Source: a phage
Direction: 5' to 3' (one strand)
Length of the DNA: 486 nucleotides
Sequence record: EF517056.1
Shown here: piece by piece, positions 1 through 486 of the stretch
Numbering within the stretch: the stretch's first letter is position 1
How the letters are laid out: each line of letters starts with the position of its first letter
Program-made: the position numbers and the translations under genes
The notes under the pieces: model-generated
The model's database searches: none
What the model saw: the letters and a program-made list of their open reading frames with translations, nothing else
What the model was told of the DNA's origin: nothing

Positions 1-134
1 CTCGTAAAGAGGCCACACAGTCACGCGCTCTGGCGATTCGCTCCAACGAACTGGCTAACAGTGCATCCACTAAAGTTACCGAGGCTGCTCGTGTGGCAAA
101 CCAAGCTCAACAGCTTTCCAAATTCTTTGAGTAA
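1..134 (+). CDS. 4.3: 3' end of a small hypothetical protein, T7 gp4.3-like (5'-partial; last 43 codons plus stop)
   Basis: Frame 3 is open from the window start (first full codon at 3) to TAA at 132..134, reading RKEATQSRALAIRSNELANSASTKVTEAARVANQAQQLSKFFE*. Same strand as the downstream gene and 19 nt from its start, matching my recollection of the T7 gene 4.3 to 4.5 spacing. Identity rests on recalled T7 gene order, not a search. Not listed in the ORF track because it has no start codon in the window. Confidence 0.7.
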   Translation, partial: RKEATQSRALAIRSNELANSASTKVTEAARVANQAQQLSKFFE

Positions 135-140
135 TCAAAC

Positions 141-145
141 AGGAA
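141..145 (+). promoter_or_regulatory. Shine-Dalgarno ribosome-binding site for the downstream 89-aa gene
   Basis: AGGAA at 141..145 (core AGGA 141..144), 9 nt upstream of ATG at 154; purine-rich and correctly spaced for E. coli-type translation initiation. Confidence 0.65.
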
Positions 146-153
146 AAACCATT

Positions 154-423
154 ATGTCTAACGTAGCTGAAACTATCCGTCTATCCGATACAGCTGATCA
201 GTGGAACCGTCGAGTCCACATCAACGTTCGCAACGGTAAGGCGACTATGGTTTACCGCTGGAAGGACTCTAAGTCCTCTAAGAATCACACTCAGCGTATG
301 ACGTTGACAGATGAGCAAGCACTGCGTCTGATCAATGCGCTTACCAAAGCTGCCGTGACAGCAATTCATGAAGCTAGTCGCGTCAATGAAGCTATGACTA
401 TCCTCGACAAGATTGATAACTAA
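154..423 (+). CDS. 4.5: T7 gene 4.5 protein homolog (89 aa), small non-structural accessory protein
   Basis: ATG 154 to TAA 421..423 gives 89 aa: MSNVAETIRLSDTADQWNRRVHINVRNGKATMVYRWKDSKSSKNHTQRMTLTDEQALRLINALTKAAVTAIHEASRVNEAMTILDKIDN. Good SD 9 nt upstream. I recognise this protein as T7 gp4.5 (89 aa) from memory; length and flanking layout agree. The ORF-track version (61..423) begins at an in-frame GTG that overlaps the upstream gene and has no SD, so ATG 154 is the better start. Confidence 0.9.
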   Translation: MSNVAETIRLSDTADQWNRRVHINVRNGKATMVYRWKDSKSSKNHTQRMTLTDEQALRLINALTKAAVTAIHEASRVNEAMTILDKIDN

Positions 424-436
424 GAGTGATATCCTC

Positions 437-459
437 AAGGTCGCCAAAGTGGTGGCCTT
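437..459 (+). other. RNA stem-loop in the gene 4.5 to promoter spacer; candidate RNase III processing site (T7 R4.7 position)
   Basis: AAGGUCGCCA (437..446) pairs with UGGUGGCCUU (450..459) around an AAG loop (447..449): 10 bp including two G-U wobbles (441-455, 443-453). It lies 14 nt after the gp4.5 stop and just before the promoter, where T7 has RNase III site R4.7 by my recollection. No U-tract follows, so it is not a typical intrinsic terminator. Confidence 0.45.
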
Positions 460-467
460 CATGAATA

Positions 468-486
468 CTATTCGACTCACTATAAG
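468..486 (+). promoter_or_regulatory. T7-RNA-polymerase-type promoter, phi4.7-like class II promoter, 3'-truncated by the window end
   Basis: CGACTCACTATA at 473..484 is identical to positions -12..-1 of the T7 consensus TAATACGACTCACTATAGGGAGA. The upstream specificity region reads CTATT (468..472) instead of TAATA, and the predicted +1 (485) is A followed by G. Position corresponds to T7 phi4.7 by recalled genome layout. Only 2 nt past -1 are visible. Confidence 0.85.

Follow-up and report, generated by a model that had tools for sequence, protein, structure and literature searches.

Bacteriophage T7 gp4.5 and, by function, T4 PinA are the closest described counterparts of the protein encoded by the DNA analysed here. 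T7 does not need gene 4.5 for growth in the laboratory, and four T7 populations adapted to heat acquired, in parallel, deletions spanning genes 4.5-4.7. As summarized in the papers that cite Sberro et al. 2013 (PMC8230891, PMC10286901, PMC3985639, bioRxiv 10.1101/2024.10.10.617714), T7 gp4.5 interacts with and inhibits the Lon protease, so that the antitoxin is not degraded, and the Shewanella sanaTA system expressed in E. coli blocks T7 lacking 4.5. The Lon-inhibiting, anti-toxin/antitoxin (TA) role of T7 gene 4.5 is already known, having been published in 2013 and incorporated in Pfam as PF17574. T4 PinA (gene pin, NP_049694.1) is, like gp4.5, a small phage protein reported to inhibit host Lon, but it is considerably longer (161 versus 89 aa) and belongs to an unrelated phage lineage. 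A BLASTP comparison of gp4.5 with T4 PinA detected no homology (E = 0.54 over 7 residues), and on the basis of their sequences the relationship between the two proteins is one of functional analogy and not of homology.

The stretch of DNA analysed here, hereafter the window, spans 486 nucleotides. In a megablast search of 50,697 phage records, 149 records matched the window; the best matches were all to bacteriophage T7, with 98.3% identity over window positions 1-484, a segment that corresponds to nucleotides 13431-13914 of V01146. All 486 bases of the window can be aligned to V01146 nucleotides 13431-13916 with nine substitutions and no gaps, and the annotated gene 4.5 of V01146 (13584-13853) corresponds exactly to an open reading frame (ORF) at window positions 154-423 on the plus strand, which starts with ATG and runs for 89 codons before a TAA stop codon. 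Window positions 154-423 are T7 gene 4.5. The features of the window, with the evidence on which each assignment rests, are as follows:

1..134, plus strand: 3' end of gene 4.3, codons 28-70 from window base 3, with the TAA stop codon at 132-134 (V01146 annotation).
141..145, plus strand: gene 4.5 Shine-Dalgarno sequence, 8 nt upstream of the ATG (alignment to T7).
154..423, plus strand: gene 4.5 coding sequence, 89 aa plus stop, with V60I, G75S, A82T and the silent change C198T (V01146 annotation, T7 protein comparison and Pfam).
424..473, plus strand: two-stem hairpin directly downstream of gene 4.5, presumably the RNase III site R4.7 (folds and consensus structure).
468..486, plus strand: T7 RNA polymerase promoter phi4.7 from -17 to +2, where the window stops and truncates it (V01146, NC_001604).

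A preliminary description of this DNA had taken the 89-aa ORF to be T7 gp4.5 and had proposed a BLASTP comparison as a check. The identification is borne out by DNA and protein identity, by Pfam family and by synteny with genes 4.3 and 4.7. The ORF product shows significant similarity to T7 gp4.5 (NP_041980.1; 86 of 89 residues identical, E = 2e-64), and the few deviations from T7 that the description had anticipated are V60I, G75S and A82T. The product matches the Pfam family PF17574 (TA_inhibitor, "Inhibitor of toxin/antitoxin system (Gp4.5)") with 201.1 bits (E = 2.3e-60; gathering cut-off, 27 bits), residues 1-89 aligning to profile positions 1-89, and it also matches PHROG phrog_2254 (E = 4e-40); an NCBIfam search gave no family. 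Upstream, the partial ORF is identical to residues 28-70 of T7 gp4.3 at 42 of 43 positions and matches Pfam PF17565 (DUF5471, E = 3e-26), carrying the substitution D46N (G57A) and the silent change C89T. The placement of gene 4.5 between gene 4.3 and promoter phi4.7 with gene 4.7 is the same in six Teseptimavirus relatives.

A search of 5.8 billion proteins returned only 85 homolog clusters, every one of them with PF17574 and some labeled 'inhibitor of toxin/antitoxin system' by their sources. In DNA comparisons, the conserved part of gene 4.5 is detectable in 740 phage records, from phages whose hosts include Escherichia, Klebsiella, Yersinia, Salmonella and Pectobacterium, among others; in several of these records the annotation reads "inhibitor of host toxin/antitoxin system". 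The Pfam model starts at or near an MS(N/K) N-terminus, as do all 73 homologs in the alignment, which supports the ATG at position 154 as the right start. An in-frame GTG at position 61, which would give an extended ORF of 120 aa, was rejected for the same reason, and because this longer ORF would share sequence with the 3' end of gene 4.3. On the minus strand, we also discarded a 99-aa antisense ORF (181-480) and two short ORFs, which lie opposite a conserved coding gene; all annotated genes of T7 are on the plus strand. A single weak PADLOC match (REase_II; E = 0.008, 13.9 bits) was treated as due to chance.

The allele in the window shares with T7 gp4.5 its locus, length, flanking genes and signals, at 98% DNA and 97% protein identity, and departs from it in three conservative substitutions within the variable C-terminal helices and in an apparently weakened Shine-Dalgarno sequence. 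The nine nucleotide differences fall at window positions 57, 89, 145, 198, 331, 376, 397, 429 and 485, and every one of them is a G:C>A:T transition (seven G>A and two C>T on the plus strand). The T7 base is present in all six relatives at seven of these sites, and in four and five of the six at the other two. Since most or all of the relatives agree with T7 at every site, the bases in the window are the derived ones. Among natural differences between the six relatives and T7, the G:C>A:T share is 40 of 142, and the probability of obtaining nine out of nine by chance is about 1e-5. Given this one-directional spectrum, we rejected an origin of the window from a natural T7 relative. The preliminary description had suggested that differences from T7 would point to a close relative rather than to T7 itself, a suggestion that does not hold here, as the differences carry a signature of mutagenesis.

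The exact gp4.5 variant encoded in the window is already deposited in GenBank as ABR22877.1 (UniRef100_A9XL05, "Escherichia phage T7"). It belongs to a set of T7 4.5 variants from 2007 (ABR22861, 22867, 22869, 22873 and 22877) in which all amino-acid changes can be produced by single G>A or C>T substitutions. A 34-mer that includes G145A had no exact match among viral contigs, and no contig encoding the exact window gp4.5 is on record, the protein being found only as a GenBank/UniRef entry. When T7 is mutagenized with nitrosoguanidine or hydroxylamine, G:C>A:T changes are the dominant class (PMC6042481). Together, the one-directional spectrum and the ABR22877.1 variant series point to chemically mutagenized T7 as the most likely source of the window, which would then be an amplicon or a clone.

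Our main reading, to which we assign a probability of roughly 0.85, is that positions 154-423 hold an allele of T7 gene 4.5, that the role of this gene against Lon-dependent sanaTA is the one given in the literature, and that this copy most likely derives from chemically mutagenized T7. The preliminary description had stated that T7 gp4.5 is a reported Lon inhibitor acting against Lon-dependent TA systems, and for the T7 protein the literature says the same; at 97% identity to characterized T7 gp4.5, the allele in the window can be expected to share the Lon-inhibiting, anti-sanaTA role. Gene 4.5 belongs to class II, is non-essential and is situated between gene 4.3 and promoter phi4.7; its 10-kDa product is the founding member of PF17574. 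Under the proposed mechanism, this product would bind and inhibit host Lon, as the literature describes. With Lon inhibited, the labile sanaTA antitoxin would survive infection; with the antitoxin intact, the toxin would stay neutralized and the phage cycle could be completed. Beyond correct annotation, these assignments are of little consequence, although the likely G:C>A:T-mutagenized origin needs to be known before the differences in the window are taken for evolution. Only two leads are non-trivial, namely the origin by mutagenesis and the predicted PUR/PC4-like fold discussed below.

Conservation within the family is concentrated in the N-terminal part of the protein. In an alignment of 74 sequences including the window protein, 19 columns are invariant (T7, T13, D15, R19, H22, N24, V25, K29, T31, V33, Y34, R35, W36, H45, Q47, R48, T50, Q55 and L59), all of them within residues 7-59 and 17 at or before residue 50, and the C-terminal third is variable. 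The AlphaFold2 model computed with the family alignment (mean pLDDT 91.2, pTM 0.71) places four antiparallel strands at residues 5-9, 16-26, 29-38 and 41-51 and, after them, two helices (53-73 and 77-88) that form a hairpin. The predicted pI is about 11.0 for residues 1-52 and about 4.95 for residues 53-89. The basic sheet (pI 11), with its invariant aromatic and basic residues, may bear indirectly on nucleic-acid binding. In the predicted structure, we infer that the basic and aromatic invariant face of the sheet is the functional, Lon-contacting interaction surface and that the helices act as a scaffold. The confident model, which resembles PUR/PC4 and combines an invariant basic sheet with a variable helical hairpin, designates residues that could be mutated to probe the Lon interface.

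All three substitutions in the window protein map outside the conserved set. Residues 60, 75 and 82 are variable family columns at which I, S and T, respectively, occur in natural homologs, and since the substitutions fall in the helices and the turn between them, the allele probably retains activity. G75 is the majority residue (48 of 74 sequences) at the predicted helix-helix turn, and in the model G75S may have an effect on stability. Upstream of the gene, the Shine-Dalgarno sequence reads AGGAG in T7 and the six Teseptimavirus relatives, all seven of which have G at position 145, and AGGAA in the window (G145A). This change may weaken the Shine-Dalgarno sequence and reduce translation of the allele, judging from the sequence. 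These observations bear on an alternative that we consider somewhat unlikely, namely that the allele is a functionally degraded passenger, a copy in which a dispensable gene has accumulated neutral mutations and is translated less, and which may also be less active. The nine changes comprise four non-synonymous and two synonymous substitutions and three at conserved regulatory (non-coding) bases, a pattern that is not that of purifying selection, and the altered Shine-Dalgarno sequence, the loss of the majority glycine at position 75 and the dispensability of the gene in the laboratory point in the same direction. However, the 19 invariant and 15 nearly invariant columns are all unaltered, the three replacement residues are all found in nature, and the AGGA core of the Shine-Dalgarno sequence is still present.

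We think it unlikely that gp4.5 is a broader counter-defense factor, for instance a general AAA+/ATPase inhibitor for which Lon is only one target and which would also blunt RADAR and further Lon-dependent TA systems, CcdAB among them. The evidence for such breadth comes from the PhageMaP preprint (bioRxiv 10.1101/2024.10.10.617714), in which gene 4.5 was more essential on UTI strains with CcdAB and deletion of 4.5 decreased plating by about 70% on a host that expressed RADAR2, a defect that complementation rescued; its authors speculate on general ATPase inhibition. A 2024 preprint describes gp4.3, together with gp4.5, as weakly countering a RADAR system.

Structural comparison provided a further lead on how Lon might be engaged. 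Sequence and profile searches of the PDB for a structure of gp4.5 or of gp4.5 with Lon returned only chance matches (E at least 0.16), and a search of BFVD with gp4.5 recovered family members first, together with uninformative uncharacterized proteins. The top Foldseek ranks for the gp4.5 model were Whirly, PUR and COMM domains, all weak (E at least 0.16). According to their PDB entries, proteins of the PUR/PC4/Whirly class are single-stranded nucleic-acid binders. No sequence or profile relationship links gp4.5 to the PUR-alpha, PC4 and Whirly structures (e.g., 3n8b, 4bg7, 8chw and 3n1h), a lenient Pfam scan of all 74 family members yielded nothing but noise besides PF17574, with PC4, PUR and Whirly all absent from the matches, and the gp4.5 model differs from that fold by a second helix, which completes a hairpin. 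The modeled resemblance is hence a lead, not a membership. It is quite doubtful that gp4.5 has a PUR-alpha/PC4/Whirly-like fold and acts through its basic sheet face on Lon, a DNA-stimulated, DNA-binding AAA+ protease; with such a fold, gp4.5 might bind nucleic acid or occupy a substrate- or DNA-sensing surface of Lon. If true, this would explain in structural terms how a phage protein inhibits Lon, and might account for the weak effects reported against other ATPase-based defenses (RADAR). That gp4.5 is primarily a single-stranded nucleic-acid binder of the PUR-alpha/PC4/Whirly type acting with the neighboring DNA-metabolism genes, with Lon, as a DNA-binding protease, affected indirectly or seeing gp4.5 as a ligand or substrate, appears very improbable.

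Downstream of gene 4.5, the window contains two overlapping signals. Scans of the window for sigma-70 promoters and intrinsic terminators found none, as expected for a region transcribed by T7 RNA polymerase, and an Rfam search of the window (E <= 1) returned no match. The segment at 424-473 is predicted to fold into a lower stem (424-432/465-473), an internal loop and an upper stem (437-445/451-459), and a consensus hairpin structure was obtained across eight sequences, the relatives being too similar to show compensatory changes. The architecture of the hairpin agrees with that of T7 RNase III processing signals, and it is presumed to be the signal R4.7, which Dunn & Studier 1983 reportedly placed at about T7 nt 13892. 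In the window, G429A converts the G429-C468 pair of the lower stem into an A.C mismatch. The predicted free energy of the 53-nt fold is -15.6 kcal/mol in the window versus -19.2 kcal/mol in T7 (a cost of 3.6 kcal/mol; z-scores of -2.5 and -4.3, respectively), and in an 82-nt fold it goes from -23.1 kcal/mol in T7 to -17.3 kcal/mol in the window, a cost of 5.8 kcal/mol for G429A. R4.7 has been named as a T7 RNase cleavage site (PMC6938266).

The second signal, promoter phi4.7, is annotated at position 13915 in V01146 and NC_001604, corresponding to window position 485, and the same promoter is annotated in phage 13a. Its +1 base is A in the window (G485A), and G in T7 and the six relatives. C468, the lower-stem base that faces position 429, is also position -17 of phi4.7, and the hairpin and the promoter hence overlap.
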